NCBI GenBank assembly: GCA_964016885.1
Contig: OZ024740.1
Location: forward strand, 193,130,001 to 193,194,000
Direction of reading: 5' to 3'
Source: Eledone cirrhosa
Lineage: Eukaryota
Length of the DNA: 64,000 nucleotides
In this document: positions 848 through 45,512 of the stretch, piece by piece
Layout: each line of letters opens with the position of its first letter
Position numbering within the stretch: position 1 is the first letter of the stretch
Notes under the pieces: generated by a model
Databases searched by the model: none
What the model was told of the DNA's origin: nothing
What the model saw: only the letters and a program-made list of their open reading frames with translations
Made by a program: the position numbers and the translations under genes

Positions 848-853
<6 letters not shown>

Positions 854-1173
854 CGAAACATAAGTCAATTGCATGAACTCATAATCCTTTATTTACTGCT
901 ATATATATTTAGATGATAGCCATTGAATGGCTATGACCTCATCAGACAGTTAGTCAGTTCTTAGATATGGCCAGCTCTCTGTGAATAGTGTTGATGGTAT
1001 CAGAGCCTTGGGACATATCTGATACCATCAACACTATACACACAGAGCTGGTATATTTAAGAACTGACTAACTGCCTGATGAGGTCATATCCATTCAATG
1101 GCTATCATCGAAATAAATATAGCAGTAAATAAAGGATTAAGAGTTCATGCAATTGACTTATGTTCCGTCACTA
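848..1173. mobile_element. fold-back (palindromic) non-autonomous element with an HHR in each arm
   Basis: About 155-bp inverted arms around a 13-nt loop, next to (TA)n. HHRs at 895-950 (-) and 1071-1126 (+). Confidence 0.85.
1071..1126 (+). ncRNA. type I hammerhead ribozyme
   Basis: actgc-CTGATGA-stem II hairpin-GAAA-ta(a/t)ata-TA-gcagt. Stem I is actgc/gcagt. Confidence 0.8.
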
Positions 1174-1306
1174 TTATAACTCCGGAACTTATATATTCGT
1201 TGAGTGCTCCACATCCGCATACTGAAGCACTGGATTTTACCGACACTTACTTTCTTGCTTATATATACATATATATATTAACATCTTTGAATATATCAGG
1301 AACTTC

Positions 1307-1560: not shown

Positions 1561-1622
<62 letters not shown>

Positions 1623-1623
<1 letters not shown>

Positions 1624-3004
1624 AAGACGTAAAATCAGCACATTTTAAAAATTAAAAATTAACTTACTTACTAAAATGTTCACTCCAACTAATTAGTTTC
1701 TGTAATGGGATAAATATAGTTACACAATATAACTATCGAGAATTCATTACGTCATCAGGGAGTCTATTCCCAGGCAGTGCGCGGACACTAGGAACCCATA
1801 TAAAAATAATAATTCAGTGGATGGAATAAGCTAGCGAGGACTAAATTCCAGAGCACTGAAAAAGTTCACTGCCTCTGGTCAGTGGCAGATTCTAAAGAAT
1901 CAATCACGTGACACTGAGGTTAGTCAGTTAGGAGTGGGGTGGTATTATGACAAGAGCCTACTACTACTACAATGAATTAGCAGTAGATTTGGCAAGTTTG
2001 CTCAACAAATAATTTGGAGATAAATATAGAGAATTAGTACATCTACCAACATATGCGTTCAGATGTACACTAATGCTAGCAAATATATAAGTTATGTTAA
2101 AGTACCTAGGTGGTTCTATGCAGGGGGAGGCAGAACAATTATATGAAAGACGTAAAATAAGAACATTTTAAAAATTAAAATTAACTTACTTACTAAAATT
2201 TTCACTCCAACTAATTAGTTTCTGTAATGGGATAAATATAGTTACACAATATAACTATCGAGAATTCATTACGTCATCAGGGAGTCTATTCTCAGCTAAG
2301 TTCCCAAGCAATGCGCGGACACTAGGAACCCATATAAAAATATTAATTCATTGGATGGAATAAGCTAGCGAAGACTAAATTCCAGAGCACTGAAAAAGTT
2401 CACTGCCTCTGGTCAGTGGCAGATTCTAAAGAATCAATCACGTGACACTGAGGTTAGTCAGTTAGGAGTGGGGTGGTATTATGACAAGAGCCTATTACTA
2501 CTACTATGTATTAGCACTAGATTTGGCAAGTTTGCTCAACAAATAATTTGGAGATAAATATAGAGAATTAGTACATCTACCAACATATGCGTACAGATGT
2601 ACACTAATGCTAGCAAATATATAAGTTATGTCAAAGTACCTAGGTGGTTCTATGCAGGGGGATGCAGAACACTTATATGAAAGACGTAAAAGAAGAAAAT
2701 TTTAAAAATTAAAAATTAACTTACTTACTAAAATTTTCACTCCAACTGATTAGTTTCTGTAATGGGATAAATATAGTTACACAATATAACTATCGAGAAT
2801 TCATTATGTCATCTGGGAGTCTATTCTCAGCTAAGTTCCCAGGCAATGCGCGGACACTAGGAACCCATATAAAAATAATAATTCAGTGGATGGAATAAGC
2901 TAGCGAGGACTAAATTCCAGAGCACTGAAAAAGTTCACTGCCTCTGGTCAGTGGCAGATTCTAAAGAATCAATCACGTGACACTGAGGTTAGTCAGTTAG
3001 GAGT
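1623..3004 (-). repeat. tandem array of 522-535 bp HHR-containing monomers (retrozyme-like), about 2.6 copies
   Basis: Units start at aaagacgtaaaa (~1623, 2146, 2680). One minus-strand HHR per unit at 1682-1763, 2204-2285 and 2739-2820. Confidence 0.9.
1682..1763 (-). ncRNA. type I hammerhead ribozyme
   Basis: Reverse complement: actcc-CTGATGA-(gtaatg...cattac)-GAAA-ctaattag-TT-ggagt, with palindromic stem III. Same motif at 2204-2285; core mutated at 2739-2820. Confidence 0.85.
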
Positions 3005-4153: not shown

Positions 4154-4196
4154 GATATTAAATAAATGGAAACTATATTTATAAGACCATATTTAT

Positions 4197-4255
4197 TTCA
4201 TTATACATATTTCAGGGATACCAAATTAAAATATGGTATGCCTTCATCAGACAAA
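4197..4255 (-). ncRNA. type I hammerhead ribozyme
   Basis: Reverse complement: tttgt-CTGATGA-aggcatacca...tggtatccct-GAAA-tatgta-TA-atgaa, inside a (TA)n-flanked module. Confidence 0.65.
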
Positions 4256-4331
4256 ATACAATATATAAACTGTTTTATAAATAATTTTGACGTACCCTAT
4301 TAGAAGCGACGATTATTTTTGGAAGCTGTTT

Positions 4332-4863: not shown

Positions 4864-4888
4864 ATGGAGATAGAGGGAGAGATAGAGA

Positions 4889-4962
4889 CGGTTAATTCTG
4901 GACTCAGTCCAGAATTAGCCGTCGAAACGGCTTGAGCTCAGCCGTCGGGGTCCTACTCGTTC

Positions 4963-4966
<4 letters not shown>
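4889..4966 (+). mobile_element. fragment of Naiad-PLE terminal repeat
   Basis: Matches the 3' end of the 45643-48182 element (ttagccgtcgaaacggcttgagctcagccgtcggggtcc). Confidence 0.75.
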
Positions 4967-5025
<59 letters not shown>

Positions 5026-5034
<9 letters not shown>

Positions 5035-5461
5035 AGATCAAAAGATGGTTAAAAGAGTTCCATGTATTTTATTATGAGCATTTCAAAAACAAATATCATC
5101 ATGAAATATCATTTGTGTTTTCATCAGATAAAATAGGAAGACATGATATGAAGGTTAAAAAACACTTGTGAATAGTGCAGACCGGGCCCGTCGCTCGGCG
5201 GCGGTTTTCTGTCGTCCCAGGCAGGCTAACAGGCGGGGACGGGAACCTTCATATCATGTCTTCCTATTTTATCTGATGAAAACACAAATATTATTGCATG
5301 ATGATTTTTGTTTTTGAAATGCGCATAATAAAATACATGGAACTATTTTAACCATCTTTTGATCTTATATATTATGTATACTCCAGTCCTAGACACTGTA
5401 GAGTGCTTCTTATCCGATATCTGCATTGCTTCATTGTACTACAATAAAACTCACCTCCTAC

Positions 5462-5462
<1 letters not shown>
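5026..5462 (+). mobile_element. fold-back HHR element with 3' tail
   Basis: Inverted arms of ~130 bp plus a ~90-bp tail, flanked by (TA)n. A sibling lies at 53875-54288. Confidence 0.9.
5265..5335 (+). ncRNA. type I hammerhead ribozyme
   Basis: tattttat-CTGATGA-stem II-GAAA-tgcgca-TA-ataaaata. Stem I is 8 bp and stem III is palindromic. Confidence 0.9.
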
Positions 5463-5535
<73 letters not shown>

Positions 5536-6632
5536 TGAATACTTAGCAATATATGTACATATGTTTTCTACTTTAGAAGTAAGGTGGTATATAACATTTT
5601 TTTCAATCCTTTGTTTACGCGAATGTTTAAACTCAACTAAGTATATGTTATAAGTCACTATTGAGTTATTTTTATTTCAAACATTACATAATATCTATTC
5701 TATAGAACACCTTGCTTCTTAACTTCAACACTATATTTTCTCACCAAATGCATGGTAAGATGCGTTAACCTAGAAGTTGAGGGCTTTACCACGAAAAATA
5801 TTTGCTCTTCTGATAAATAAAACAAAATTTAGAGCAAAATATAAATGTTGGGTCTGTGACTTAAAATCAAATATCTTGGTATATTCAAGTATTTTATAAC
5901 GTACAAATGCTCATGCATAGGTAAGGTATGCACATATTTATATATGTTTGTAAATGTACTTGTGTTTGTACGTGAGTATGTGCAAGTATCTTCAGTATTT
6001 ATAAATATATTTATATATATTTATACCCATTTATATATAGCAAAAATGACAACATTTCTAATGTGAATGCTCTGTTGTTAGGAAATGTTGCGGTAGGTGT
6101 TTTGAGTCAGTAGTACCTTCATATTGATTAGACTTCGACGTGTGGAAATTCCTGATATATACAAAGATATTAATAAATGTAAGACGATATATGTAATTTT
6201 CTTCGCTAATCAGAAAAGGTTGATGAATGAAATGAAGGCAACCACTTCATTCCTCATGTACCTAATAGCATTGCTACAGTAACGGATATAGCCATCTTAC
6301 ACGGTGAGTTTTGAAGAGATTAGTTTCACTAAGAAAGTGTCCGAGAGAAAATAATTTAGTTGGTTTATTAAATGACTTCTCTGTTACGCGAATAACACTC
6401 ATTTACTTTCCTTGATTTTTCACCAAATTGATTGTCGTAATTTTAAGGGAAGACGTTTAATAAGCAAACTTAATTATTTATTATTACGCTCGTTCTCAGT
6501 GAAAATACCCACATTAACTAGCCACCTTGTATGATGAATATATCCCTTACTGTACTAATGCTATTGGTTTCTCGAGGAATGAACTGCCTTCATTTCCTTC
6601 ATATATCTATCTATATATATATATATATATAT

Positions 6633-6838
6633 ATAGGAACGAGTAGGACACCGACGGCTGAGCTCAAGCCGTTTCGACGGATAATTCTGGACAGCATTCT
6701 GAGTCCAGAATTAGCCGTCGAAACGGCTTGAGCTCATCCGTCGGTGTCCTGCTCGTTCCTATTTACCACTCAACTACACTAAGTATTGAGTACTTTGGTG
6801 CGTTATGGTCCACCTGGTTCCTTACCACATTTCCTTCG

Positions 6839-6842
<4 letters not shown>
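6633..6842 (+). mobile_element. fold-back copy of Naiad-PLE terminal repeat with tail
   Basis: ataggaacgagtagg...gttcctat palindrome plus a ~78-bp tail ending ccttcgtt, in (TA)n. A diverged relative lies at ~6900-7027. Confidence 0.85.
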
Positions 6843-6903: not shown

Positions 6904-7024
6904 GAAACGGCCGGAGCTGAGCCGTCGTGGTCCTGACTCTTTTCATATTCCCCTCTCTAATACCCATAGTATAGAGTACTCTGGTGCGTTATGGTCTACC
7001 TGGTATCTCACCACACCTTCTTTG

Positions 7025-7059
<35 letters not shown>

Positions 7060-7315: not shown

Positions 7316-7356
7316 GCCCTTGAGAAGCCCTTTTCGGGCGAAACGTACGTAGGTGC
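7316..7356 (+). ncRNA. minimal hammerhead, U3-A8 core variant
   Basis: gccc-TTGAGAA-gccc-ttttc-gggc-GAAA-cgtacg-TA-ggtg. Stem I is partly mismatched. Confidence 0.6.
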
Positions 7357-9330: not shown

Positions 9331-11479
9331 AGTAGAAGGTGTTAAGCAAACGCAGCTGGGCATGGACATCCTCTTGTTCTCATCAATGTTGATGGAAAGC
9401 ATATAAATGTGGATTCCGTTTCCATGACATTTAACAGAATAAATATTACGAAATGTCATCAAATTTCAAAGATGAAATCTACTTCTTTTCAAACACTTTG
9501 CAAAGAGAAAACAAAACGGCATCATGGGGTTAAGCTCTGTTTGGTAGTTCAGTGTATGATAATTTAACTTCAGGTAGTTGAAATATAGAAATTAAAACTA
9601 TAATATTATTCAAATCTGGACATCTGGCTTTGATATGCTTATCGCTACAACGACTTCTGTCATTTATTTAAATGGCATTCTTCTGGATCACGCGCCCTGG
9701 GGCGCCAGACAAATGCTATATCTTCGTCGATATAATGAGATCGTACTTAAAGCACTTTAAAACTTGATTTAATAAGTATCATTTTACTACAATGCTGTGT
9801 CAGTGACAAAGATCTTTTGAAGTGAAGCATGCTTGGAATAAGCAGTTTAACATGCTTTGTTTTCAAAAGTATTGTTCAGCGTTCAAAATAATTCATCCAA
9901 TGTTTATTATAACAATTATATATATCTACCCCATACCAATATATATATGATATCATCATATGCACTCTTTTGATGCTATTACACCATAATTATATGTTAC
10001 ATGCCTCCCTCCTTTTTTTCCTGTATGCTCCAATGTACTAAAAATCACGTATTTCTTGATTAATATAGCAATAACATTAGCTTTTATTCCCTACATTAAC
10101 ATAACTATTAATCCTAAGACTAGAAGCAATGAGTAGTACCTTAGTATCCAGGTATTTAATTTCATTCAAGTCATGATTGTCATCATCAAATGGTTGCATA
10201 CACATTGAAAGGAATTGCTACATAGTAAGTGATTTGTGACTGAACATAATCAAACATCCTCTTTACTTAATGTGAAGTACTCTCATCCCAGACAAACATG
10301 CCCTTTCTGTTGTGTAATACACCACGTTATCACTGGATCACTTCCCCTATCGATTTTCTCCTTCCGTCTTCATCTGCAACCTACTGTATATGGGAATTGT
10401 GCATAAAAATACAACTTCGGAAACATACATTTCTTTAGAGAAATATATATATATATATATATAAATGTAATCTGAGTTATTCGATTCATTTGCAATTAGC
10501 ATTTCCTGCTTATTACCTTTTCCATTCATTAGTCAGTTAAATCAGCAACAACAACAACTACAACTACAACGACAAAAAAAAAACGGAGGAAAATTGCCTT
10601 ATCTGTTTTAACCACACCCTTGCCTACAACGGCAACAACAACAATAAAAACATGGGAGATATCGGGTTATATTCCTCATTGCTGTGAGACAGTGTAGAGT
10701 TGCATGATCAGGTGGCGGGCCGCAATCCTACCATTCCTGTCACTACTAATTATTTCCTGCGCGCAGGGCCGATCACTCCAATGAGTTACCAAGTCCAAAC
10801 ACAAAGGAACCAAACTCCCACTGTCTCCCGCTCTCCCCATCTCTCACTATCATGAGCAAATCGGGGCCCGCGTGCTGGTCGCATCGTAGAGACAGGCAAG
10901 TAGGTGTGGAAATATGTAGCTATGTAGGTATGCCAAAAGATAGTCTTAATTCTATATAAAAGCATAGTATATGTGAATTGTGTTGGCTAGACAAGGTGTC
11001 ACTCATTAAACTATAGAGAAGCAAGTATTATTATATAAATGTACCCAGATAACATTTTGTTAATAAATATATATGTATTAATGTAACTATTACACAATGT
11101 TTTCCAGTCGTATACTTCCTTGCTCCTTTTCCTCATCTTAATTTCTTACTTTTGTATATTCCACTTAGTTTCAGTATATAATGACCATACCGAATAAGCA
11201 GTGTAGATTGAATATGCATATAGATGTGTGTTTGAGCGCATTTTGTGTTGTTTAACCATAGGCCATCATTGATTGAAGAAATATATGAGCAATGGCATCC
11301 TAAACGTAAACACCGCATTTTATAATGTTATCTGAAACAATATTAACGAACGTGTATAATGGGATTTTAAGGAGATTTGTCTGATATTTCAAGTGTGCGG
11401 TGGGATTATAGATAGACATCCGTATTGGCTTCTAGGTGTAAATTCTGGAATATGTTGACATGATTGTGTGTGTGTGTGC

Positions 11480-11524
<45 letters not shown>

Positions 11525-12204
11525 TGTGTGTGTGCACGACTTCACATATGCACAAGTTTTGTAAATTGAAAATAACTTTAAAGAGAAGGCAAATGATATC
11601 AAATAGATGCCATGAAAGTATAACATTTATGTATCTTGCTTGACGAGTGTTAATATTTTTTCCCAATATCTATCCTCTTAGTAGTGAGAAACACGACGCT
11701 GCCAGCACCTGTTACTCGACAATAACCTATAAACAAGTAAATAATTCTTAGATATAATATCCATTGTTATCTGTAGGGAGTAGTTATATTTAATTTAATC
11801 CTGTTTTGAATATTATAGTGGCTGATTTTTATCTCTCTCGCATAACTAGGAAACTAATTCAATAAAGGAATTACTAGAAAAAGCCCTAGGGAAGCGTGCA
11901 GCATGAGATTCCTAGGCTAAATTGAGCGGTAACATACTTTATGTAGTGAATTATATCAAGAATGTTAACGTTTACTTTAATATGTTTGGTTAGATATGGA
12001 ATATATAATCGGAAACGGAAAGCAAATATTAATTTTCCAAAATATTTACTCTTTAACCCAATGATTTGACTAGCGGTTTCGACCTTTAGGTTTCAGCTCT
12101 TGGTGGTCCATTGCATGGAAGTATTAGCCTGAAATAATGTGTGACAATGATGGATATAAAATTACGAGTACACACCATTTCCCTCAAAAAGATTGGATCG
12201 ACGC

Positions 12205-12295
12205 GAGACTATCTTAAAGATACTTGCCAAAGATGGCACCCAGTGGGATCGATATCATGGTCCCATGGTTGGGGACAGAAATCCATAACCGCTTA
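12205..12295 (-). mobile_element. tRNA-derived SINE 5' part (octopus OK-like)
   Basis: Reverse complement contains ggtta...cccaaccatggg...cccactgggtgccatctttggcaagtatctt. Confidence 0.5.
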
Positions 12296-12341
12296 ACTAA
12301 TCAGCACAAGCGATTTGCTCATATATATATATATATATATA

Positions 12342-12550
12342 TATAGGAACGAGTAGGAAACCGACGGCTGAGTTCAAGCCGTTTCGACGGCTAATTCTGG
12401 ACTAAATTTAGTCCAGAATTAGCCGTCGAAAAGGCTTGAGCTCAGCCGTCGGGGTCCTACTCGTTCCTATTACCCACTCTACTACCCTAAGTAGTGAGTA
12501 CTTTGGTGCGTTATGGTCCACCTGGTTCCTTACCACATTTCCTTCGTTAT
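12342..12550 (+). mobile_element. fold-back copy of Naiad-PLE terminal repeat with tail
   Basis: Same family and same two end points as 6633-6842. Confidence 0.85.
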
Positions 12551-12912
12551 ATATATATATATATATATATGTCTGTGTGTGTGTTTGTGTGCGTGTATGG
12601 CTGTGTGTGTGGCTGTGTGTGCATGCATGTGTGTGTGTGTATCCTTATATATGACATACCACAAAACTATTGGTTGGGTTAGTGTTCTGTTGATAGTTAA
12701 AGCATCCTACTTTCAGGCAGTTTTCATCTAAATGGCATCATGAGTGATCTTCATTCCATGCTATATCGAATTTGAAGCCTAACGTATACTATGGCGTACA
12801 TATAGACAATCCGAAACAGACTGAAGCAGCAATCACACATTTGTTCAGAGGATATTTGTATGGATGCAATAAAAGATGCATATGTCACGAAAAAAGACTT
12901 TTTAATAGACAC

Positions 12913-13105
12913 GGGAGGTGTAGTGGCAGTATCGGCAGAGGGTCGGGCGCCATGCTTTTCAGCAAAGAGTTACGCCGCTTTTGCGGGCTGAATTCCAATA
13001 CTGCCGTGGTTAACTTTGCCTTACATCCTTACAGGGTCCATAAAATAATGTACCAGTAATTCACTGGGATAATTGCTGGCCTTGTGCCAAAAAGTAGAAG
13101 CAATT
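12913..13105 (+). mobile_element. tRNA-derived SINE (octopus OR-like central domain)
   Basis: A-box-like head tagtggcagtatcgg, then gccgtggttaactttgccttacatcctt...taaaataatgtaccagt...ctggccttgtgcc. Confidence 0.7.
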
Positions 13106-13212
13106 ATGAAATAGACAAATTGGCATGATTAATCTTACAACACTTCTAAACACGACTACCCAATGAATCCGCATGTATAGTTATATTTATATATATATAT
13201 ATATATATATAT

Positions 13213-14074
13213 ACAGTATTTTCCGTTGTGTTGTAATATAAATATTACACACAGTAGATTATCAGCTCACGTAGAGTTTGCTCGACGGTTCCAGTTGTAG
13301 TTCCAAAAGTAATCCGGAGAAAAATAGAAAGATTTGAATGGATACAGTTTAGTTGAAAGGAATTTATTGACACGTGTTTCTATAACAGTTACATAACCTA
13401 AAACAGCTATCTACAAACTTTTAGTTATGCAGACATTCAATATTTCAATGTTATTATTTACTGTCATTTCATCAGAATAATATTACTGAGGACCTATTTA
13501 GTTTTTATAGAGAATATTAGGAGGGAGGGGTGAAGTTGTTAGAAGAATAGTTGAAGGAGTGGTTTTTCGATAGCAGTGAGAATTCTTGGTGGCAGTGAGT
13601 AATTAGATTCCCATCTGTTGTTTTGACATTTTTTATAGAATATATTATTGGTTATTTTTCTAAATCTATAGAAGGATTAGAGATAGTAAAGATATGCGTG
13701 GTTGGTTTTGTGTTTGCACTTAATTAACATTCAGACTTAAATTTTTCTTTCAAGTGTACGTATCCTTTCACCCACGCATTCACACACAAATATATTTGCA
13801 CACCTCTACAAAATACATATACTCACAATTCACATATTCATACTTACATATATATACACATGCATACACATATATATACACACATGTATTCATATACATA
13901 CATACGCGCTCATGTGTATACATTTTCATACTCAACTTATCTTTATATACACACGTATAGACACACTCATATATACATACATACTCTAGTCCATGTGTAC
14001 ACACATACACATACTTACACATCCATATACACATATATACATACATATATATATACACATATATATATATATAC

Positions 14075-14164
<90 letters not shown>

Positions 14165-14332
14165 ATACATACACATACACATACACACACATACATACAT
14201 ATATATATATAAGCACTTTAATACATGAATACACTTACATCTAACTATACAGTTAGATGTAAGTGTATTCATGTATTAAAGTGCTTATATATATATATGT
14301 ATGTATGTGTGTGTATGTGTATGTGTATGTAT

Positions 14333-14424
<92 letters not shown>

Positions 14425-15172
14425 GTATATATATATATATGTGTATATATATATGTATGTATATATGTGTATATGGATGTGTAAGTATGTGTATGTGTGT
14501 ACACATGGACTAGAGTATGTATGTATATATGAGTGTGTCTATACGTGTGTATATAAAGATAAGTTGAGTATGAAAATGTATACACATGAGCGCGTATGTA
14601 TGTATATGAATACATGTGTGTATATATATGTGTATGCATGTGTATATATATGTAAGTATGAATATGTGAATTGTGAGTATATGTATTTTGTAGAGGTGTG
14701 CAAATATATTTGTGTGTGAATGCGTGGGTGAAAGGATACGTACACTTGAAAGAAAAATTTAAGTCTGAATGTTAATTAAGTGCAAACACAAAACCAACCA
14801 CGCATATCTTTACTATCTTTAATCCTTCTATAGATTTAGAAAAATAACCAATAATATATTCTATAAAAAATGTCAAAACAACAGATGGGAATCTAATTAC
14901 TCACTGCCACCAAGAATTCTCACTGCTATCGAAAAACCACTCCTTCAACTATTCTTCTAACAACTTCACCCCTCCCTCCTAATATTCTCTATAAAAACTA
15001 AATAGGTCCTCAGTAATATTATTCTGATGAAATGACAGTAAATAATAACATTGAAATATTGAATGTCTGCATAACTAAAAGTTTGTAGATAGCTGTTTTA
15101 GGTTATGTAACTGTTATAGAAACACGTGTCAATAAATTCCTTTCAACTAAACTGTATCCATTCAAATATTTC

Positions 15173-15820: not shown

Positions 15821-18792
15821 TGTATTGCAGAGTAATTCGTGGTAGAGGGATGGTCAGTAGGTATGTGTCTGTAAGTGAGTGGGGTATATTTTAACATGTT
15901 AAAATATATTTTTCAGCTCTTGTCTTATACGGAGAAGTGTGTGTATGTGTGTGTGTATAAGTCTCTTTGTATGTTAATGTACGCGGGTGTATGTGTGTGC
16001 GTATATATGTGTGTGTGTATGTGTGTGTGAGAATATGTGTGTGTGTGTGTGTGGGTCGACCAGTAATTTTTCCCTGGTAAATCGATTCTCTCAATAGAAC
16101 ATCAAAAACCTTAACAATAAAAGGTTTGAAATGATATTCACTATATATATATATATACATACATATATTCACTATATATATATATACATATATATTTTTG
16201 TGTTCCACCATAGAACGTGTGTGTTTACGTATGTCATTGTGTTTATATCTGGGTATGTATGTTGACGTGTGTATGTTGTGGGTTCGTCTTAGGGAGAAGT
16301 GTTTAGACGGGGTCAGTATTTGTTAATAAAGTAAGATTCCTTGGTGATGCGCTGGGTGTGGGTGGCATTATCTTTAAATTTGTAGAGGGGAAAGATTCTG
16401 AAGTTGGGATGATTTTGGGCGGCACAGGTATCAATGTGTTCACTCAGTGGTATTTTCCTATATTCCCATATTTTAATTTGGGATCTATGGACAGTCATGC
16501 GTTGGCGGAGGCTGATTTTGGTCTGGCCTATGTATTGTTCTCGACAACCTGAGCAAGTTAATACATATATTAGATTTTCCAATGCACATGTGAAATTGTG
16601 TTTTACTATAAAACGTTGGCCTTCTTTGAAATAGAATTCCGAACCCTCTATTAGGTTGATGCAAATGCCACAGTTGGGTCTATCGCATTTTTTTACTGTG
16701 GGTTTCGTTGTTGTGGTTGGTGGTACTTTGGCATGTGTTAGGATGTTTTTCATTGACTTAGATTGTCTTTTGCTCATTATGATATCGTGTGTGGGTAGGA
16801 TTTGGTTCATTCTATGGTCCTTTTTCAAAACAGGGATGTTCTGGGGGATGGTGTCAAAGGCCTCATTGTTGAAGGGGTTGTGTGTGGAGATGTATGGAAG
16901 AGCTTTTAGTTTCGGTTGATTTACTTTAGGGTGTCTAAGGTCCTGGGTACTGAGTTTTAGGGCACGTTGGATTCCATTGTCAATTAGTGATGCAGGGTAG
17001 TCCCTGCCTTTGAGTGTGTCCTTTAGTTCTTGTAGCCGTAAGTAGCAGGTGTTTTTATTGGAGACTATAGTACATAATCTCTTGGCGAAGTTTTAGGGAA
17101 TATTAATTTTAACGTGTCTAGGGTGGCAAGAGTTGAAAGGTAGACATTGCTGGAGTCTGTGGGCTTGTAGTATATGTCTGTCTCTATTTTTTTGTTATGG
17201 ATCTTAATAAGGATGCCGAGGAAGGGGAGTTGTTACTGGCTGTATTCCATCGTGAAGTTAATAATCGTGTTGAGCCCATTTATAAGTTTTTCGATGTTTT
17301 CGTGCCAAAGGATGAAGCAGTCATCTAGATATCGCTTCCAGTTCCTTTCTATGTGTAAGTGGAGTGTGTTTCCAAATTTGTTTAGGACTTGAGTGTAGAG
17401 GGTGATTTCCAGGTATCCCATGACTAGGTTGGCATAAGTGGGGGCTGTTTTCATTCCCATAGCGGTCCGAGATTTCTGCCTGTAGGGTTTCTTATTGAAA
17501 ACGAAGTAATTGTTCTCCAAGATAAATTTGAGTCCCCCTATCACGAATTCTTTTCTGATGCGTTGTGGGAGATCATTGTGGCAATTATCCAGCCAGAATT
17601 GGATAGCTTCTATGCCTAGGTTGTGGGCGATGTTGGAGTATAGGTGGACTACATCGAACGTCACTAGTAGGGTTTGTTCAGAAAGTGGCATATTAGTGAG
17701 GTGATTGAGCATATCTAAGTCGTCCCTTATATAGCTTTTGATGTGTTTGTGAAAGGGCTTGAGAAGGGTATCAATGAAGTTGCTAAGGCGGTGGGTTTCG
17801 CAAGCGGGGCCTGCTATTATAGGTCTTAATTTGAGATCATTGGGTGAGGGGACATTGATGACTATGTCTGTGGCTTCTTTGCATGCCTTACTTATTAATT
17901 CGATTTTATGTACTTTAGGGATACCGTAGAAAAGGCTGGATTTACTTGTGAAGTCTGTGATGAAGCTGAATTCCTTGTTAGTGAGTCCTTCTTTGTATTG
18001 GTTGATTAGAGCTTTTAGGTTTCTCATAATTTTCTGTTGATTGTAGTGTTCAGCCTTTTCGTAGTATGTTTCGTTTTCCAAAGTGGAGAGCGCTAAGTTG
18101 ATATATAATTCTTTCTCCATTAGGACTACAGTACTACCTTTATCAGCCTCTTTAATTGTAATGGTTCTGTCGGTTTTTAATCTATTTAATTCTTCCCATT
18201 CTTTCTTGTTGAGGTTTGGCTTGTGTTATTGTATGTTCAAGTGTTGGTAATGGCAGTGTATGATGTGTTCACAGAATTCGTCCAGGATTTTATTTCTACC
18301 TTTTGATGGGGTGTAATTGCTACTATTTCTGGCTAATGATTCATCCTCATTGTACTGGTCGAATAGTTGTTCACTAAGTCGTAACTTTCTACAGAAGTCT
18401 GTGATGTCTTCCTTCATTTCATAGTAGTTAGGACGTAGTAGGGTCGGTGTGAATTTAAGACCTTTGGAGAGTAAGTTGATAAGGTTGGGTGTTGGTTCTG
18501 CACTAGTAAGATTGATAATTTGTATTACTATCGGTTTCTCCTCCCTGTCTAAAAATTCAGACATATTCCTTCTGACCATCCCTCTACCACGAAATACAGA
18601 CATATTCCTACTGACCATCCCTCTACCACGAATTATTCTGCTACACACACACACACACACACTTCTCCGTATAAGACAAGAGCTGAAAAATATCTTTTAA
18701 CATGTTAAAATATCCCTCACTCACTTACAGACACATTCCTACTGACCATCCTTCTAGCACGAATTACTCTGCTATACACACGCACGCACACA

Positions 18793-18823
<31 letters not shown>

Positions 18824-19318
18824 TTCTCTTAATAGGCATTTGAACTGTCAACAGGCTGCTTGTCGCACACACATCCCTGCTAACCATTATCACAACAACG
18901 AACACTTTACTACTACTACTACACACACACACACACACACATATTTGTTGTGAAAGAGTCATTTCTCAGTCTTGGCGCAAATCAATTTTTTACATTCACA
19001 TGACCTCTACCGACCAATCAAAATTGTTTTGACCACAACAATTTTGCAACACGAATTGGCGCAAAAAAACAATTTTAATAGCGCTGGGGCCACTTTTTTA
19101 ACATAAAACCAGGTAGAATTCCCAAAACTAATCAGATCAGAGCAAACATCACGGACGCTCTATCACAAAATTATTTTTGAAAAGCATTTAGAAATGCGCA
19201 ACCGGTAAAACTTAAAACCAAAACTTATTACTAACCAATACAATTACTAATTCTCATTTATTCCTAATTAAACTATTTTTCACTGTGAACAATTTGTCAG
19301 CATTTTCTATTCCGTTTA

Positions 19319-19323
<5 letters not shown>
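15235..19323 (-). mobile_element. Penelope-like retroelement (Neptune-type) with inverted pseudo-LTR
   Basis: RT plus GIY-YIG coding remnant. 18640-19323 is an inverted copy of 15273-15945. Tail at 15235-15272. Flanked by (TA)n. Confidence 0.92.
16313..18545 (-). pseudogene. PLE reverse transcriptase / GIY-YIG endonuclease ORF, frameshifted
   Basis: INLT..LLSKGLKFTPT, ADKG, FYGIPKVHK, LRPIIAGP, TFDVVHLYSNI, AMG..APTYANL, RYLDD, CDRPNCGIC and LIYVLTCSGCREQYIGQT. Confidence 0.92.
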
Positions 19324-19397: not shown

Positions 19398-21243
<1,846 letters not shown>

Positions 21244-25009: not shown

Positions 25010-25131
25010 GGAACCAGTAAGACCCCGACAGCTGAGTTCAAGCCGTTCCTATTACCCACTCTACTACCCCAAGTATTGAGTACTTTGGTGCGTTATGGTC
25101 CACCTGGTTCCTTACCACATTTCCTTCGTTA
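25007..25131 (+). mobile_element. short fold-back copy of Naiad-PLE terminal repeat
   Basis: Same termini as 6633-6842. Confidence 0.8.
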
Positions 25132-25715: not shown

Positions 25716-25874
25716 AACGAAAGAAATGTGGTAAGGAACCAGATAGACCATAACGCACCAAAGTACTCAATACTTAGGGTAGTAGAGTGGGTAATAGGAA
25801 CAGGTATGACCCCGACGGCAGAGCTCATACCGTCGAAACGGCTTGAGCTCTGCCGTCGGGGTCATACTTGATCC

Positions 25875-25947
<73 letters not shown>

Positions 25948-26335
25948 CGAAGGAAATGTGGTAAGCAACCAGATGGACCATAACGCACCAAAGTAGACAA
26001 TACTTGGGGTAGTAGAGTGGGTAATAGGAACAAGTAGGACCCCGACGTCTGAGCTCAAGCCGTTTCGGCGGTTAATTCTGGACTAAATGAACATTTTTAG
26101 CCTGGTAAATAAATAGCCGAACTTCTCAGCGAGTAATTCCATATATGGTAAAATTGATTGTCACAAGAATTGGGCAAAAGTTTGTTGTTGAGACACATGA
26201 TTCTATCATGGCATTTTGTGAAAGGTAGGGGTAGCTGAACTTGCCAGTAGAAGAAAGAGGGAGAGGGAGTGGAGAAAATCCAGTGAAGCCTTGAAAGTGA
26301 CAACTACAGCAGATTCTAAGGATAGAAGGTCGAAA
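25716..26335 (-). mobile_element. two 3'-end copies of the Naiad-type PLE (terminal repeat plus 3' UTR)
   Basis: 25946-26335 is the reverse complement of ~47800-48182. 25716-25878 is a short fold-back copy. Confidence 0.85.
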
Positions 26336-26344
26336 AAAGTATAC

Positions 26345-26608
26345 TAGAGAAGGGCTGAGGAGGCCAACATGTCAAAGTATCGATCGCTCTCCGACAGGTC
26401 CGCAGTTCTGCCCTTGGCAGTGGAGACATCTGGTGTCCTTGGCCCTAAGACTACCTCTCTACTCATCACCATAGGCGCTGAGCTAGCCAGCCGCAGGTGT
26501 GAGCTTCGGGAGTTGGAATGGATCTTCCAGTGCGTTTCCCTTGCCGTCCTCCGAGGAAACGCCTTCTCCATTCTGTCAGCCGGGATTGCGGGGAGGCCAT
26601 CAATATGA
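26345..26608 (+). pseudogene. C-terminus of CRE-clade non-LTR retrotransposon restriction-like endonuclease
   Basis: KYRSL...PLAVETSGVLG...FQCVSLAVLRGNAFSIL. Confidence 0.75.
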
Positions 26609-27487
26609 TTGACTGACTTGTCATGTTATCATGGACCCTACTTCTGCTAAACGTTTTCATTTTGAAAAAATTTAAATCTGTCATTAAGTTGAATTGGTTG
26701 ACTGTAGCTTAGCAGCTGTTGAGAATTACGTAAACATAGAAGTATATATTCTCTATAAATCTGAGATATATATATATATATAATAGATGACATAATTATG
26801 TAATTCCATATACAAAAACGGTTAAAGGTTTGAGTATAACGCTTGTGAAATTTCAAAATATATTGTGTTTATATTGCCAGATGTTTGTTTTGAAATATAT
26901 AATGTAATATGATATTTTTTACTTCTAAAGAGAAATGTGTTGTATCCATTAACTTCGCTAAAACTTCGCGACTGATGATACCGAAGCTGTTAAAGATTTT
27001 ATTTAACGGTTGCAATGAAGGCTATGGTAGTTAAAAAAGAAATATATAATTGTTCTTCCAGAAATCCATATTCTGGGAAAAAATAACAGTTACTTCTGAG
27101 TAAAAGGAGCCACTGTACTTATAATAGAATATGTTTATTGATGGGTTCGAAGGACTGTAATACAGCAATAAAACTGTTTTTTATAACAGTTGAAGGATAA
27201 ACCGTCGAAGCTATTTCTATGTGTGGTGTTTAAAACGCCAGCGTGCTTAGCTACAGCACCGTATTAGACAAGAGAACAGAACTCTATTGTGTGTCTCAGC
27301 TCAGCATTGTAGAAAGTTAGTAGCTGTTGGAAGTTAATGTATATTCTGAATACGAAAGAAGAATTTATTAAACAATGATGAGCGATTTCCAACTAAATTC
27401 TTCAGGTATGTTAATGCCCAGGATTGGTGGAGATATTCTGTCTCCTCAAATCTTAATTTTCGGAAAATAAAATAATAAAGAAAAATG

Positions 27488-29592: not shown

Positions 29593-29599
<7 letters not shown>

Positions 29600-29945
29600 G
29601 TGAGGTTTTTTTTACAAAATGAAAAATAACCGAGGTGTCCTACACGAGTGAAAGTATAAAGAAAAAGAGATGAAATCGAAAATGCAACTGAAGTCTTATT
29701 TTTTTTTTAAATATATATATTTATTTGGTTCCTTTACCGGTTTCGCAGTTCTTCTGCTTTTCAAAAGGTGAGTTGAGATGGAGGGTCTGTGGTTTTTCTC
29801 ACATCTGAGAAAAACCACAGACCCTCCATCTCAACTCATATTTTGAAAAGCAGAAGAACTGCGAAACCGGTAAAGGAACCAAATAAATATATATATTTAA
29901 AAAAAAAATAAGACTTCAGTTGCATTTTCGATTTCATCTCTTTTT

Positions 29946-29952
<7 letters not shown>
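29593..29952 (-). mobile_element. fold-back HHR element with tail
   Basis: Arms 29656-29800 and 29805-29952, with a ~63-bp tail. A shorter sibling lies at 31342-31525. Confidence 0.9.
29731..29768 (-). ncRNA. minimal hammerhead, U3-A8 core variant
   Basis: Reverse complement: cctt-TTGAAAA-gcag-aagaa-ctgc-GAAA-ccgg-TA-aagg. Confidence 0.75.
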
Positions 29953-31341: not shown

Positions 31342-31346
<5 letters not shown>

Positions 31347-31525
31347 ACAAAGGGATGAAATCGAAAATGCAACTGAAGTCTTATTTTTTTTTTAAATATA
31401 TATATTTAAAAAAAAAATAAGACTTCAGTTGCATTTTCGATTTCATCCCTTTTTCTTTATACTTCCACTCGTGTAGGACACCTCGGTTATTTTTCATTTT
31501 GTAAAAAAAACCTCACTTTCTAATA
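31342..31525 (+). mobile_element. short fold-back element with tail, same family as 29593-29952
   Basis: Palindrome centred on tatatatata, with the same tail ending ctcactttctaa. Confidence 0.85.
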
Positions 31526-32980
31526 TATATATATATATATAAACAATTAAGTTAAAAATGTACATCCACATATGTATACTGAAATACTAGTATGCATATG
31601 AATACCCACACGTATACATATGTAGATGTACCGAGTTTTTCACTGGTCACTTTACTGTGAGTGTCCAGCTATTCTGTATGTAAACACACAGACAAACCGG
31701 TTTTTAGAGTCATACTGGTTTTTGAGGAAACACCTTTCCTCTATTCTCCAGAAAGCCAGACAAGGAATATTGAACTAGTTTCGATGTTGTTACATCTCAT
31801 CAGCAATATTTACCTATCTTCCGGCCTCTCTAGAGAATCGTAAAAGCACATATCGTTATATGCTTTTTCTATGAAAATTAGTAGTGGGCAGACTAATTTG
31901 CATAGAGCGTGAGTACGTACCGGTTCAACGGAGACGATAAAAACAAATAACGAAACGAAATTAAATTTCGTTTCGTTTGTAACTCACTTTTGTATGACTG
32001 ACGCTTAAACAATTAAGTTAAAAATGTACATCCACATATGTATACTGAAATACTAGTATGCATATGAATACACACACGTATACATATGTAGATGTACCGA
32101 GTTTTTCACTGGTCACTTTACTGTGAGTGTCCAGCTATTCTGTATGTAAACACACAGACAAACCGGTTTTTAGAGTCATACTGGTTTTTGAGGAAACACC
32201 TTTCCTCTATTCTCCAGAAAGCCAGACAAGGAATATTGAACTAGTTTCGATGTTGTTACATCTCATCAGCAATATTTAGCTATCATCCGGCCTCTCTAGA
32301 GAATCGTAAAAGCACATATCGTTATATGCTTTTTCTATGAAAATTAGTAGTGGGCAGACTAATTTGCATAAAGCGTGAGTACGTACCGCTTCAACGGAGA
32401 CGATAAAAACAAATAACGAAACGAAATTAAATTTCGTTTCGTTTGTAACTCACTTTTGTATGACTGACGCTTAAACAATTAAGTTAAAAGTGTACATCCA
32501 CATATGTATACTGAAATACTAGTATGCATATGAATACACACACGTATACATATGTAGATGTACCGAGTTTTTCACTGGTCACTTTACTGTGAGTGTCCAG
32601 CTATTCTGTATGTAAACACACAGACAAACCGGTTTTTAGAGTCATACTGGTTTTTGAGGAAACACCTTTCCTCTATTCTCCAGAAAGCCAGACAAGGAAT
32701 ATTGAACTAGTTTCGATGTTGTTACATCTCATCAGCAATATTTACCTATCTTCCGGCCTCTCTAGAGAATCGTAAAAGCACATATCGTTATATGCTTTTT
32801 CTATGAAAATTAGTAGTGGGCAGACTAATTTGCATAGAGCGTGAGTACGTACCGGTACATTTTTAACTTAATTGTTTAAGCGTCAGTCATACAAAAGTGA
32901 GTTACAAACGAAACGAAATTTAACTTCGTTTCGTTATTTGTTTTTATCGTCTCCGTTGAACCGGTACGTACTCACGCTCT

Positions 32981-32988
32981 ATGCAAAT
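32981..32988 (+). promoter_or_regulatory. octamer motif ATGCAAAT upstream of HHR, in every monomer
   Basis: Exact octamer ~93 nt before CUGAUGA. Equivalent motifs at 19856-19863 (-), 20295-20302 (-) and 44770-44777 (+). Confidence 0.45.
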
Positions 32989-33073
32989 TAGTCTGCCCAC
33001 TACTAATTTTCATAGAAAAAGCATATAACGATATGTGCTTTTACGATTCTCTAGAGAGGCCGGAAGATAGGTA

Positions 33074-33118
33074 AATATTGCTGATGAGATGTAACAACAT
33101 CGAAACTAGTTCAATATT
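33074..33118 (+). ncRNA. minimal type I hammerhead ribozyme
   Basis: aatattg-CTGATGA-gatg-taacaa-catc-GAAA-ctag-TT-caatatt. Five identical copies in the array. Confidence 0.9.
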
Positions 33119-33871
33119 CCTTGTCTGGCTTTCTGGAGAATAGAGGAAAGGTGTTTCCTCAAAAACCAGTATGACTCTAAAAACCGGTTTGTCTGTGTGT
33201 TTACATACAGAATAGCTGGACACTCACAGTAAAGTGACCAGTGAAAAACTCGGTACATCTACATATGTATACGTGTGTGTATTCATATGCATACTAGTAT
33301 TTCAGTATACATATGTGGATGTACATTTTTAACTTAATTGTTTAAGCGTCAGTCATACAAAAGTGAGTTACAAACGAAACGAAATTTAATTTCGTTTCGT
33401 TATTTGTTTTTATCGTCTCCGTTGAACCGGTACGTACTCACGCTCTATGCAAATTAGTCTGCCCACTACTAATTTTCATAGAAAAAGCATATAACGATAT
33501 GTGCTTTTACGATTCTCTAGAGAGGCCGGAAGATAGGTAAATATTGCTGATGAGATGTAACAACATCGAAACTAGTTCAATATTCCTTGTCTGGCTTTCT
33601 GGAGAATAGAGGAAAGGTGTTTCCTCAAAAACCAGTATGACTCTAAAAACCGGTTTGTCTGTGTGTTTACATACAGAATAGCTGGACACTCACAGTAAAG
33701 TGACCAGTGAAAAACTCGGTACATCTACATATGTATACGTGTGTGTATTCATATGCATACTAGTATTTCAGTATACATATGTGGATGTACATTTTTAACT
33801 TAATTGTTTAAGCGTCAGTCATACAAAAGTGAGTTACAAACGAAACGAAATTTAATTTCGTTTCGTTATTT

Positions 33872-33942
<71 letters not shown>

Positions 33943-34766: not shown

Positions 34767-35395
34767 TATATATATATATATATATAAATAAGATTTCGCT
34801 TCAAGCATAGCTTTATACAAATATCTATAGAAATGTATATATATATGTATCTATATTTTATATTATAAAGTATAGGTACATCTCTAACGTTTCGCGTTCA
34901 TATGGTGGTCAGTTTATGTTGTTTTGATTGATGGTTTTCCTATGATGAATGTTTTGGAATATGTGATAGGTGGGGGGGGGGGACATAGTGATGAGGTGGT
35001 GATTGTGGGTAGCGAAGGTTGATGTGAGTTGCGGGTGTGTGGTATTTTGGCTTATCATAGACATTCTGGCTTGTACGTGGTGAGGCAGAGGTGCTGTGTT
35101 TGGTGTGGATGCGGTAGAGCAGTGCCTGATGGAAGATGGATCGGAGTTGACTTGTTTGTTTGGAAAGCATATTTAAGTTAAAAATATGAAAATAAATAAA
35201 TAAATAAAATCTGCCTTCCAAATAAACAAGTCAATTTTGGGTCTCTCACAGGGATACTCTTTTGATAATGGGTTTTTAAACCTAAACATGTTTGGGATTA
35301 TTAAATTTTGAAAGGTAAGATTCTTTTGTTATCTTAGCAATCTTGATTTTCTTTCTCGTGCATTGTATGGTTTTCCTAATTATTTGAATTTGTAT

Positions 35396-39555: not shown

Positions 39556-39726
39556 GAGGTGTGTCAGAAAAGTCACAGAAAAAGGTTTGATCGCTGCAGA
39601 CAGCTAAGATTACAGTTACATACTCCAGGGGGATTACTTTGAAAGAGAAAACTCTTAGTGTGAAGTTTGGGTTTGAAATAAATCTTTTGTGACATCAGTC
39701 GTGGAACTTTTCTGACACACCTCGTA
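39553..39726 (+). mobile_element. mariner-derived MITE
   Basis: 21-bp TIRs tacgaggtgtgtcagaaaagt/acttttctgacacacctcgta in TA context. Internal ggggattactttgaa encodes the mariner C-terminal GDYFE. Confidence 0.9.
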
Positions 39727-39879
39727 TATATATATATATAGGAAATGAGTCAAGACCCCGGCGGCTGAACTCCCATCGTTCAGTACACATATTTTAATAG
39801 CTTTAAGATTTATCTAACATAGCCTAATTAACCTTATTTTTCCAGATAAATGATGACAAACATCAAGCTATCTCTGCAT

Positions 39880-42430: not shown

Positions 42431-43215
42431 TTCAACGTCATTTGATTGTCGTCCTATGCCAGGCTGAGTTTTCTTTTAGGGTTATGGCTGTATTGATTAG
42501 CAACCCGTCTTTTCAACCATATTAGTATTTTCAGTATCCTTTCTTTTCTTCCGGAATAAGGTTGTTTATTCGAGGGTGCTTGGCTAGTTTCTGCGATAAT
42601 ATTGCAATTAAATATTTGCATATAATATATCAATACACTGGTAAACAACACAGGGAAATTACACATTACAACGGTAGTTTAACTCTTGATATAGTAAGGA
42701 ATATGTCTTAACTTTTAGGGCGTTAGTCCTTAATCAAAGGAGGTTAAGATGAGGAAGAAAGGATGCAAGATTTGGATCATGTGTCTCTTTAGTTAACTAT
42801 TTCGAGGCAATGTTCGCGCACTACATATATATAACATTGAGGTAAAACTGTATGGACGTGTAAATATAAAGATAAGAAACTATAGCTGATAATAATAGCA
42901 TAGTTGAGGATGAAGATGATATTGGTGATATAGATGACGTCAAAAACGGCTGCGTTTACTATTGACAGGGTAAGAACATATGAATAAGAATAAGGCTGGG
43001 GAGTTTCCTAAATAAAGAAGATGTTGTTTATGATAAGGTGATGTGATGTGATACACTACATAATAACTCTTTCGGAGAGATCTATAGCTGGCTCCTACAA
43101 GCATTACTGTAATACTTATAAATATGCATACACATGCACGTAACGCCCCACCAAACAATCATACACAACCACGCGCAACCACGCACTTACATACATATGT
43201 GTATATTCATACATA

Positions 43216-43353
43216 TCGTCTGCTTAGTAAACAACATGTAACACAAACACACAAACACACACATCAATATATATATATACGTATATATATATATTGATGT
43301 GTGTTTGTGTTTGTGTGTGTGTCAGAGTTACATGTTGTTTACTAAGCAGACGA
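43216..43353. repeat. short palindrome
   Basis: tcgtctgcttagtaaacaacatgtaac ... gttacatgttgtttactaagcagacga. Confidence 0.85.
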
Positions 43354-43589
43354 AATATATTATAAGGTTTATATATATATATTATATATATATATAAAGA
43401 GTACAGGTAATGAAACTCCTAAATGCGCAAATAAATGTACCCATGTCTAGTATTAACTCATTTAACCCTGCCAAACTCCTTAAATCGATTTTGAAGGGAA
43501 TATGTAAGAGAGTATATGCCATATCACTGTAATAACATACAATGGACGTACTAATTTGCATATTATTAGCTTCTAGTATAGAGTCCTGT

Positions 43590-45087: not shown

Positions 45088-45129
45088 ATACATACTTATA
45101 TATGTATATATATATATATATATATATAA

Positions 45130-45512
<383 letters not shown>

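Follow-up and report, generated by a model that had tools for sequence, protein, structure and literature searches.

One-tailed head-to-head insertions of Penelope-like elements in (TA)n tracts of Eledone cirrhosa and a possible origin by twin priming

Introduction

How does a retroelement come to lie in its host DNA as a palindrome that carries a tail at only one of its two ends? The question is raised by a short insertion in the octopus Eledone cirrhosa, found in a 64,000-nt stretch of contig OZ024740.1 (hereafter the window). Inverted 5'-truncated copies, junction palindromes and a tail at one end have been described for Penelope/Poseidon, Neptune, Naiad and rotifer Penelope-like elements (PLEs), according to sections of two reports (PMC8557442, PMC3846280), and both the completion of PLE insertion and the origin of inverted repeats with a one-sided tail are named as open in parts of the literature (PMC8557442, PMC11167929). 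A regularity of insertion across many families points to how PLEs copy into DNA, and PLE insertions over about a third of the window supply an exceptionally large natural collection of end points and junctions.

The focal insertion

The focal insertion, assigned to family A, is made up of two arms in inverted orientation, a spacer and one tail:

5028 to 5463: family A focal insertion, both ends abutting (TA)n
5028 to 5180 (arm alignment 5030 to 5180), minus strand: short arm, antisense on the plus strand, its 3' end abutting (TA)n at 5027
about 5073, minus strand: cut site of the short-arm hammerhead motif
5181 to 5245: spacer of 65 nt, G+C-rich
5246 to 5372, plus strand: tail arm
5263 to 5337, plus strand: type I hammerhead motif of the tail arm, with a CTGATGA core, palindromic helix III TGCGCA, an 8-bp helix I and a cut at about 5327
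5373 to 5463, plus strand: tail of 91 nt, beginning with TAT and ending at (TA)n
53879 to 54285, minus strand: second family A insertion, with two ends as in the focal copy, another fold-back point and arms identical at 125/125 positions

The focal arms are identical at 118/124 positions. The short arm stops at gatcttat(at)at/TAT (a slash marks the site here and below), and the TAT at the start of the tail overlaps by 3 nt with the (TA)n that adjoins the short arm. A first-pass annotation had placed a fixed short end at gatcttata; the end is indeed fixed, although it lies 2-4 nt past that point. The spacer has no second copy or match within the window, and upstream family sequence or a captured foreign RNA are candidate origins for it.

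A one-tailed layout in twelve families

The window has a G+C content of 22-44% per 2 kb and is rich in (TA)n and related microsatellites. Self-comparison of the window, together with follow-up, yielded 12 families with 20 head-to-head insertions whose two ends are both readable, embedded in (TA)n tracts. As the first-pass annotation had described, one arm runs to the end of a tail (31-131 nt) and the opposite arm ends at an internal site, and this one-tailed layout was found in 20/20 insertions. Each insertion is thus two 5'-truncated copies of an element's 3' end, head to head, with both 3' ends facing (TA)n; copy 1 ends at the distal (tail-end) site and copy 2 at the proximal site, usually on TAT or ATAT. 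Most insertions measure 120-600 nt, and together with their relatives they cover 23,227 of the 64,000 nt, about a third of the window, in 33 stretches. If arms chose freely between two start sites, 20/20 one-tailed insertions would have P ~1e-6, or 2e-4 when counted by the 12 families, among which the single-copy families F, G, H and L weigh less because their tail is defined by the asymmetry itself. The following insertions belong to families B to E (names in brackets are used below):

6636 to 6839, plus strand: B fold-back with an 80-nt tail (B6633)
12346 to 12547, plus strand: B fold-back (B12342)
25010 to 25129, plus strand: B fold-back (B25007)
25717 to 25874, minus strand: B fold-back (B25717)
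4887 to 4967, 6904 to 7025, 25947 to 26363 and 39741 to 39782: single B arms
45646 to 48179, plus strand: B partial tandem, with a fold-back and tail at 45646 to 45779 and a second tail ending at 48179 (B45643)
29594 to 29948, minus strand: C fold-back with a 65-nt tail and a U3-A8 minimal hammerhead at 29725 to 29774
31344 to 31522, plus strand: second C copy
45129 to 45245, minus strand: D mini fold-back with tail, its short arm reaching 21 nt further upstream than the tail arm (D45130)
54357 to 60908, plus strand: long D insertion, with an inverted tail arm at 54357 to 54736 and a tail-less, sense short arm at 60601 to 60906 (D54354)
57787 to 58391, plus strand: E fold-back with a 60-nt tail, a hammerhead at 58127 to 58181 and a 36-nt duplication at the centre (E57785)
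49792 to 50479: older E relative with a 131-nt tail

The seven short ends of family B (4967, 6636, 12346, 25010, 25874, 39741 and 45646) fall at or within a few nt of gttcc/TAT, and its eight tail ends all fall at one site, 80 nt past the short site. Between the two tails of the B partial tandem lies a 5'-truncated, broken reverse transcriptase (RT)-endonuclease remnant of Hydra type (about 45781 to 46990), and a 3' region with a hammerhead-like fold precedes the second tail; the tail end at 45779 is followed by the RT fragment, not by (TA)n. Both C copies share the short site ttctt/TATA and have a tail of 65 nt. The D short ends lie at attaaaac(t), with tails of about 64-67 nt. In the long D insertion, an RT-thumb and GIY-YIG remnant of Hydra type runs from 54737 to about 55560 (CxCX5C, CxxC, CxH) and the short arm is non-local, being 6 kb away, past the ORF remnant and a 4.6-kb microsatellite block; a family E copy interrupts the insertion as well. 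Its arms are identical at 305/306 positions, with a hammerhead in each. The E copies have the short site aaca/ATAT in common and are 76-77% alike.

The short-arm ends that had been stated for these five families were therefore recovered in all five (A to E). The further claim that the insertions of a family share the same two ends holds for A to D, but not for E, where the tails differ (60 versus 131 nt) although the short site is common. Fold-back centres vary within families A, B, C and D, as also claimed: with the short site set to 0, they lie at -124 to -175 in A, -4 to -61 in B, -64 and -131 in C, and -13 to beyond -315 in D, although those of B tend to coincide with self-complementary spots in that family's hammerhead-like fold. 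Families F, G, H, I, J, L and X follow the layout of A to E:

850 to 1259, plus strand: F fold-back with an 88-nt tail and a hammerhead at 1066 to 1131
13216 to 15172, minus strand: G fold-back with 888-nt arms that include a microsatellite, a 111-nt tail and a 4-nt loop
15235 to 19321, minus strand: H, a nearly full Neptune-type PLE with a 40-nt tail on the sense arm
19591 to 21178: I, an old head-to-head tandem array with about 2.8 units on the left and 1 unit on the right, a 31-nt tail and one intact hammerhead
31542 to 33874: J, a young head-to-head array with a 466-nt unit
60992 to 61270, plus strand: X fold-back with a 107-nt tail, its short arm reaching about 67 nt further upstream
61760 to 62136, plus strand: L fold-back with a 32-nt tail, an ATATA overlap and a hammerhead at 61869 to 61917

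Tails measure at least 60 nt in 9/12 families (60-131 nt) and are near 30-40 bp only in H (40), I (31) and L (32). Within young insertions the arms are identical at 125/125, 64/64, 114/114 and 305/306 positions, identity between insertions being lower, and in older copies the two arms have diverged by 5-12%. Perfect or near-perfect palindromes with a 0-4-nt loop make up 5/20 insertions. Symmetric terminal inverted repeats (TIRs) at both target junctions, by which TIR elements and MITEs are recognised, were absent, the ends being asymmetric in 20/20; only an unrelated element at 39557 to 39722 has them. Any target-site duplication is masked by the (TA)n flanks, and neither a duplication nor an empty allele was readable. 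Palindromes of this kind could easily be misfiled as MITEs or SINEs in octopus repeat libraries.

Hammerheads, reading frames and clades

A scan for hammerhead motifs gave 22 distinct cut sites in the window versus 0-1 in each of 20 shuffles. The strict scan was passed in 8/12 families (A, C, D, E, F, I, J and L); G in the strict scan and H yielded none, and in B and X hammerhead-like folds with a long helix II were recognised by eye, that of B with C3-A8, in a region that folds no better than shuffles (z 0.23). Within the fold-backs the motifs point outward and lie 22-231 nt upstream of the short site. The hammerheads of the window have a short palindromic helix III, to which C adds a U3-A8 core; both are described PLE hammerhead traits in part of an earlier report, which already noted hammerhead pairs close together on opposite strands (PMC4209133). 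Outside the listed families, hammerheads were found in two tandem units (1677, 2199), at 4192 and at 44848. The first two belong to a direct tandem array at 1622 to 3002 (units of about 530 nt, minus-strand hammerhead motifs, no inverted arm), which may be a third retrozyme-like family. A single arm between TA tracts at 4155 to 4331 carries a minus-strand hammerhead with its cut at about 4202, and a solitary minimal hammerhead-like motif at 7318 to 7355 has a U3-A8 core by eye, a short helix I and no inverted partner. Rfam at E <= 5 returned 395 matches, nearly all of them microRNA models on hairpins or microsatellites under their gathering scores, and only five HH9 matches, in J, were used.

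The tails themselves gave less. Folding was better than in shuffles for only 2/9 tails (G and J), so that no common tail structure emerged, and the tail translations contained no recognisable ORF start. A short motif, GAGT(A/G)C, picked after looking, occurs 20-30 nt past the short site in 4/12 tails (A, 5373 to 5463; B, 12468 to 12547; D, 54357 to 54420; F, 1172 to 1259), where it is a possible protein-binding signal.

Remnants of coding sequence were joined to three families. Those of B and D align to the RT and endonuclease (EN) of P0001, the GIY-YIG domain of D, at 0.011, falling below the cut-off. The B translation contains CNCPVGSIC (CxCX5C) and CNLC (CxxC), that of D contains CNCLNKEAC (CxCX5C), CDLC (CxxC) and CMH (CxH), and for the remnant at 54722 to 55492 one match was found among longer proteins, from Argonauta (1/503 candidates). 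The linker (CxCX5C, CxxC, CxH) and C-terminal EN motifs suggest that B and D belong to the Hydra clade. As described in part of Craig et al. 2021, that clade shares with them CxCX5C, CxxC, (in D) CxH, a C-terminal GIY-YIG domain, hammerheads and (TA)n targets, whereas the positions of its RWK and DKT motifs precede the points at which the B and D copies are truncated; these copies are broken and assigned by motifs (PMC8557442). H contains RVT_1 (3.6e-08) and GIY-YIG (4.6e-05) domains, and the motifs read from its translation are those of a Neptune-type element (DKG, GLKF as GxKF, a CX4CxxC linker and CCHH in the EN), the linker motif being common to Neptune and Nematis and not telling the two apart. 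By identity, the closest matches of the RT remnant at 17236 to 18225 are Octopus proteins (62-67%). The inverted tail-less H copy (18558 to 19321) carries three staggered re-copies.

The features of endonuclease-bearing (EN+) PLEs are thus present in the window: RT with GIY-YIG, 5' truncation, partial tandem or inverted pseudo-LTRs (pLTRs), a one-sided tail and a type I hammerhead motif. The insertions are almost certainly the 3' ends of endonuclease-bearing PLEs together with non-autonomous hammerhead repeats. The hammerheads in the arms and the ORF remnants joined to B, D and H bear out the link that had been drawn to the inverted pseudo-LTR with tail of PLEs. The view that the pattern extends to many non-coding elements fared less well. 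'Non-coding' is only partly right, since RT-endonuclease remnants of the Hydra clade adjoin B and D, and the window shows B, D and H to be the ends of PLEs that code for protein. For A, C, E, F, G, I, J, L and X no ORF was found in the window, and A, C, E, F, G, L and X may be severe 5' truncations of autonomous PLEs, only the tandem arrays I and J looking truly non-autonomous. The small hairpins are ordinary inverted-pLTR PLE insertions truncated to 120-600 nt.

Array J begins on the left at the short site, with a TA overlap, and ends on the right after a 66-nt tail. Its units are >99% alike, every difference between units being private, and each of the 5 units that span the hammerhead carries it, with Rfam HH9 scores of 36.5-36.8 (n = 5 matches), under the gathering score of 52. 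As in non-LTR retrozymes, its tandemly repeated units are non-coding, and two or more of them in a row contain a type I hammerhead motif. The two ends of the array sit 66 nt apart inside the unit; they fall inside the repeating unit and are therefore not transcript ends. Judged by its repeats and ends, J appears to be a retrozyme-type array with PLE-type ends.

Target overlap and raw-read check

The start of the tail continues the (TA)n beside the short arm by 3 nt in A, B, F and G, 4 nt in C and E, 5 nt in L and 7 nt in H; the overlap is small in J (2 nt) and in D, I and X (0-1 nt), the D short ends stopping 2-3 nt before TATA. An overlap of at least 3 nt in 8/12 families has P = 1.4e-4 against random cut points in the same arms, taken at the best TA phase with one copy per family, in agreement with the proposed microhomology between the short site and the (TA)n target. 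Template beyond the tail end is readable only in the tandem arrays, and the overlap there is 1 nt in J. A fixed short site that overlaps the target is left unexplained by self-priming on an antisense template, which would build the palindrome before integration and was proposed for the head-to-head junction palindromes of rotifer Penelopes in part of one report (PMC3846280). Since later in vitro work, as far as a section of it describes, uses sense RNA with internal starts (PMC11167929), we consider this origin very improbable.

Four public runs, consisting of three raw RAD sets from three samples under one species label and a contig set, were mapped on the family B arm only (25939 to 26400), giving 23,244, 23,316 and 26,848 mapped RAD reads per set. 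Most of these reads are 90-95% alike and therefore come from other copies, possibly those of a close relative. Among the loose ends listed, the top one in 3/3 read sets was 26024, at the short site with its TAT, and its consensus was (AT)n throughout (3378/23244, 3140/23316 and 3044/26848 reads), and the contig set ended at the same place in 75 contigs. The only other loose end listed on that side was 25957 (944, 1119 and 928 reads); its consensus looks like the tail end found in a diverged subfamily. A further 10,327-14,981 reads cross the ends of the mapped stretch. For family B, the read sets thus refute random short-arm end points, which had been set beforehand as the observation that would overturn the fixed-end claim, and the short site is fixed beyond the window. 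Of the reads covering the B arm, about 28% end at the short site (in set X6, 3378 of about 12,100), against the half expected if every tail arm had one short arm, a share in which library or filter bias is not separable; the window holds 7 short and 8 tail ends of B. Joints between opposite strands recur between runs at several positions, with tens of reads and 1-4 starts each and the direction not given, and since reads end at AATT inside the arm (26074 to 26077), fold-back centres are poorly mapped by joints.

These results also bear on the reading of the palindromes as foldback DNA transposons or MITEs, or as fold-back chimeras created during sequencing or assembly. Long reads are known to produce palindromes as artefacts, and a symmetric TIR element does sit in (TA)n within the window (39557 to 39722). 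However, the insertions have asymmetric ends, hammerheads and PLE ORFs, the arms of older copies differ by 5-12%, all three read sets, each from a different sample, show the same B short end, and opposite-strand joints reappear from set to set. We therefore give this reading hardly any credence overall, and for family B it is already largely refuted.

Mechanism of insertion

We infer, as the somewhat more probable course of events, that one RNA is twin-primed at two fixed sites and that the cDNAs overlap, a course that would involve both strand displacement and the use of a single RNA. The GIY-YIG endonuclease would cut both strands of the (TA)n target, and both DNA ends would prime reverse transcription on one RNA molecule at two fixed start sites, the proximal start being helped by a few base pairs with the target and the distal start being set by the RNA-protein complex. 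The distal cDNA would run through the proximal site and displace the other cDNA, so that the two cDNAs would overlap, unlike those of L1 twin priming. Both would stop at hairpins or at a broken 5' end of the RNA, and their 3' ends would join by short complementarity, followed by fill-in. The stop is not the 5' end of a cleaved RNA, as the hammerhead cut never lies at the fold-back point in the elements checked. One RNA with two sites would explain one tail per insertion, arms that are identical at birth and an upstream reach that may be longer in either arm. The course agrees with the anole PLE, in which both strands are cut and extended from a pair of neighbouring RNA starts flanking the tail and for which a dimer is modelled (PMC11167929), and its internal priming and cDNA annealing are taken from L1 (PMC2912911).

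The upstream reach of the two arms was compared in all 20 insertions. The short arm is longer in 8, the tail arm in 3, the arms are equal within 4 nt in 5, and 4 were unorientable. The short arm exceeds the tail arm in A5026, the focal copy (-150 versus -124), B25007 (-37 versus -4), B25717 (-45 versus -36) and D45130 (-34 versus -13), as well as in D54354 (the ORF), I, J and X; the tail arm is longer in H, E57785 and, tentatively, B6633. The ORF accordingly lies on the short arm in D54354 and on the tail arm in H, while re-copied segments lie on the short arm in H and on the tail arm in E57785. As either arm may hold extra sequence, both arms seem to be primary RNA copies, and the identity of young arms within an insertion points to one template.

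The first-pass annotation had put forward snap-back, with twin priming as a bracketed alternative, and the latter fits better. Under snap-back, the tail-primed cDNA would fold back, copy itself to an internal TA site and anneal to the other (TA)n end, which would account at once for the single tail, the identity of the arms and the TA overlap. The 5/20 palindromes with 0-4-nt loops, several of them centred on self-complementary spots such as TGAGCTCA or the internal TA run of C, agree with it, and self-annealing at 2-bp homology is reported, in part of one study, to make inverted duplications at L1 breaks (10.1101/2024.12.14.628481). Snap-back predicts a loop on the tail arm, but the loop is on the short arm in 8/11 informative insertions, among them D54354, where it holds the ORF remnant, and I, where it holds more than one repeat unit, and each short-arm loop would need a later one-sided deletion. 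In B12342 and B45643 the loops have zero nt, and such loops are hard to form within one strand. The 8-to-3 split is not different from even (P = 0.23), and it excludes snap-back only if later deletions inside larger palindromes are rare; since microhomology at the arm junction is indistinguishable from later palindrome deletion, snap-back keeps some weight, and we regard it as unlikely.

A short-arm loop in 8/11 would also follow from a hybrid course, in which a cDNA started at the internal site extends upstream, folds back to copy itself and then joins a second, short tail-primed cDNA that stopped at the internal site. The tail arm of B25007 does stop 4 nt beyond the short site, and several opposite-strand read joints, whose direction is not given, have one end at 26027 to 26030. 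This course cannot yield H with its tail-arm ORF, the B partial tandem at 45646 to 48179 or the many tail-ended single arms that reach far upstream, and it seems to us a rather doubtful one. Either arm could likewise be the longer if each subunit of a dimer primed one strand with its own RNA and the cDNAs were end-joined, in keeping with the extension of both strands in vitro and the modelled dimer (parts of PMC11167929). By themselves two RNAs leave one tail in 20/20, equal stops in 5/20 and arm identity within insertions without explanation, although arm identity could stem from one source locus or from gene conversion, and we take their use to be quite improbable.

For twin priming on one RNA, the target overlap under 3 nt in D, I, J and X counts against target pairing, as do the anole start sites, which lack homology to the cut DNA and show no strand preference (PMC11167929). 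Short-site stops at about 28% rather than half, and near-perfect palindromes that snap-back makes as easily, also count against it. With these points included, it is conceivable, if somewhat short of probable, that the one-tailed palindrome is the normal PLE product across Hydra- and Neptune-type clades, made by stereotyped twin priming on one RNA with a target-paired proximal site, and that the same machinery inserts retrozyme arrays whole in one event, as in J. The insertions offer three testable rules: each has a single tail, the proximal site overlaps the target, and either arm may be the longer.

Comparison with known systems

L1 twin priming uses a variable internal site and its two pieces overlap little; here each family has one fixed site, and the overlap of the two pieces forms a palindrome. 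What the two have in common, according to part of Kojima 2010, is that both DNA ends prime one RNA, the second at an internal microhomology, and that short complementarity lets the cDNAs anneal; the microhomologies left behind by L1 twin priming are the same (PMC2912911). Neither a model of twin priming nor target microhomology at the ends of PLEs was found in the literature searched, with most subscription journals outside its scope, and the sections seen of PMC2377424 and PMC13282606 hold nothing further on PLE ends.

The closest likeness is to EN+ PLE insertions, which, in parts of Craig et al. 2021 (PMC8557442) and Arkhipova et al. 2013 (PMC3846280), have 5' truncation, partial tandems, a head-to-head inverted copy, a tail at one end, junction palindromes, (TA)n targets, also given for the Hydra clade (PMC8557442), and pLTR hammerheads, as here. 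The claim that the window extends the known PLE pattern therefore falls, the layout being the insertion pattern already described in sections of PMC8557442, PMC3846280 and PMC11167929. The tail of EN+ PLEs is given as 30-40 bp, a typical rather than a defining length, and as 'optional', whereas here it measures 31-131 nt and is on exactly one arm in 20/20; the sections of these reports that bear on insertion ends (PMC8557442, PMC3846280) do not mention a TA overlap at the tail-less end, which is present here.

The Poseidon element PAc of Anolis carolinensis (Frangieh et al. 2024), as described in part of that report, cuts and extends both strands in vitro, and two adjacent internal RNA starts bound the tail (PMC11167929). 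Like the window insertions it has two fixed tail-bounding ends downstream of the hammerhead cut and AT-rich targets, and the arms here run through the hammerhead cut, as expected with an uncleaved RNA template (PMC11167929). The anole start sites are not homologous to the cut DNA and neither is preferred by either strand; by comparison, the proximal site here matches the target in 8/12 families (PMC11167929). The portion of that report on insertion contains no model for inversion or for a single tail per insertion (PMC11167929).

Retrozymes have been proposed as PLE passengers (Cervera and de la Pena 2020, PMC7229834; Li et al. 2026, 10.64898/2026.07.22.740005), and non-LTR retrozymes in sections of both papers share with J the non-coding tandem repeat and a type I hammerhead per unit. 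These sections argue from co-occurrence and pLTR similarity, whereas J shows the insertion signature itself (PMC7229834, 10.64898/2026.07.22.740005). Local tandem expansion after insertion is suggested in part of Li et al. (10.64898/2026.07.22.740005), while J has a head-to-head inversion, a short end, a tail end and a TA target. The junctions of J would be direct evidence for the mobilisation of animal retrozymes by PLE proteins, for which the evidence so far is co-occurrence and sequence similarity. With the layout already known, what is added here is the regularity across 12 families, tails to 131 nt, the proximal target overlap and array J, four points not found in the literature searched, most subscription journals lying outside its scope.

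Other inverted repeats in the window

Eight further inverted repeats were examined and kept out of the 20:

39557 to 39722: symmetric element in (TA)n with TIRs of about 25 nt and no hammerhead
6223 to 6602 and 35147 to 35234: old repeats without a hammerhead
43209 to 43398: probably the same plan, ends not resolvable
44592 to 45104: probably the same plan, ends not resolvable, hammerhead at 44848 to 44898
4887 to 4967: family B, left arm lost
56109 to 57786: degenerate TA/TG/CA microsatellite palindrome, arms identical at 738/766 positions
61489 to 63192: larger inverted duplication in which L and X each recur as a second copy

The first of these looks like a TIR transposon, with ends that we take to be mariner-like, and is a useful contrast to the one-tailed elements. 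The element at 44592 to 45104 is old, with 135-nt inverted ends, and is distantly similar to the J unit. The microsatellite palindrome at 56109 to 57786 abuts the short arm of E57785 inside D54354 and is possibly a fold-back of read-through or flank sequence. The duplication at 61489 to 63192 spans 780 nt at about 90% identity, is centred on a TA tract and copies an older L element and an X arm. The B arm at 25947 to 26363 meets, at its 5' end and in head-to-head orientation, a fragment at 26364 to 26620, as a chimeric or nested insertion; the translation of this fragment resembles the C-terminus of a restriction-like-endonuclease non-LTR retrotransposon.
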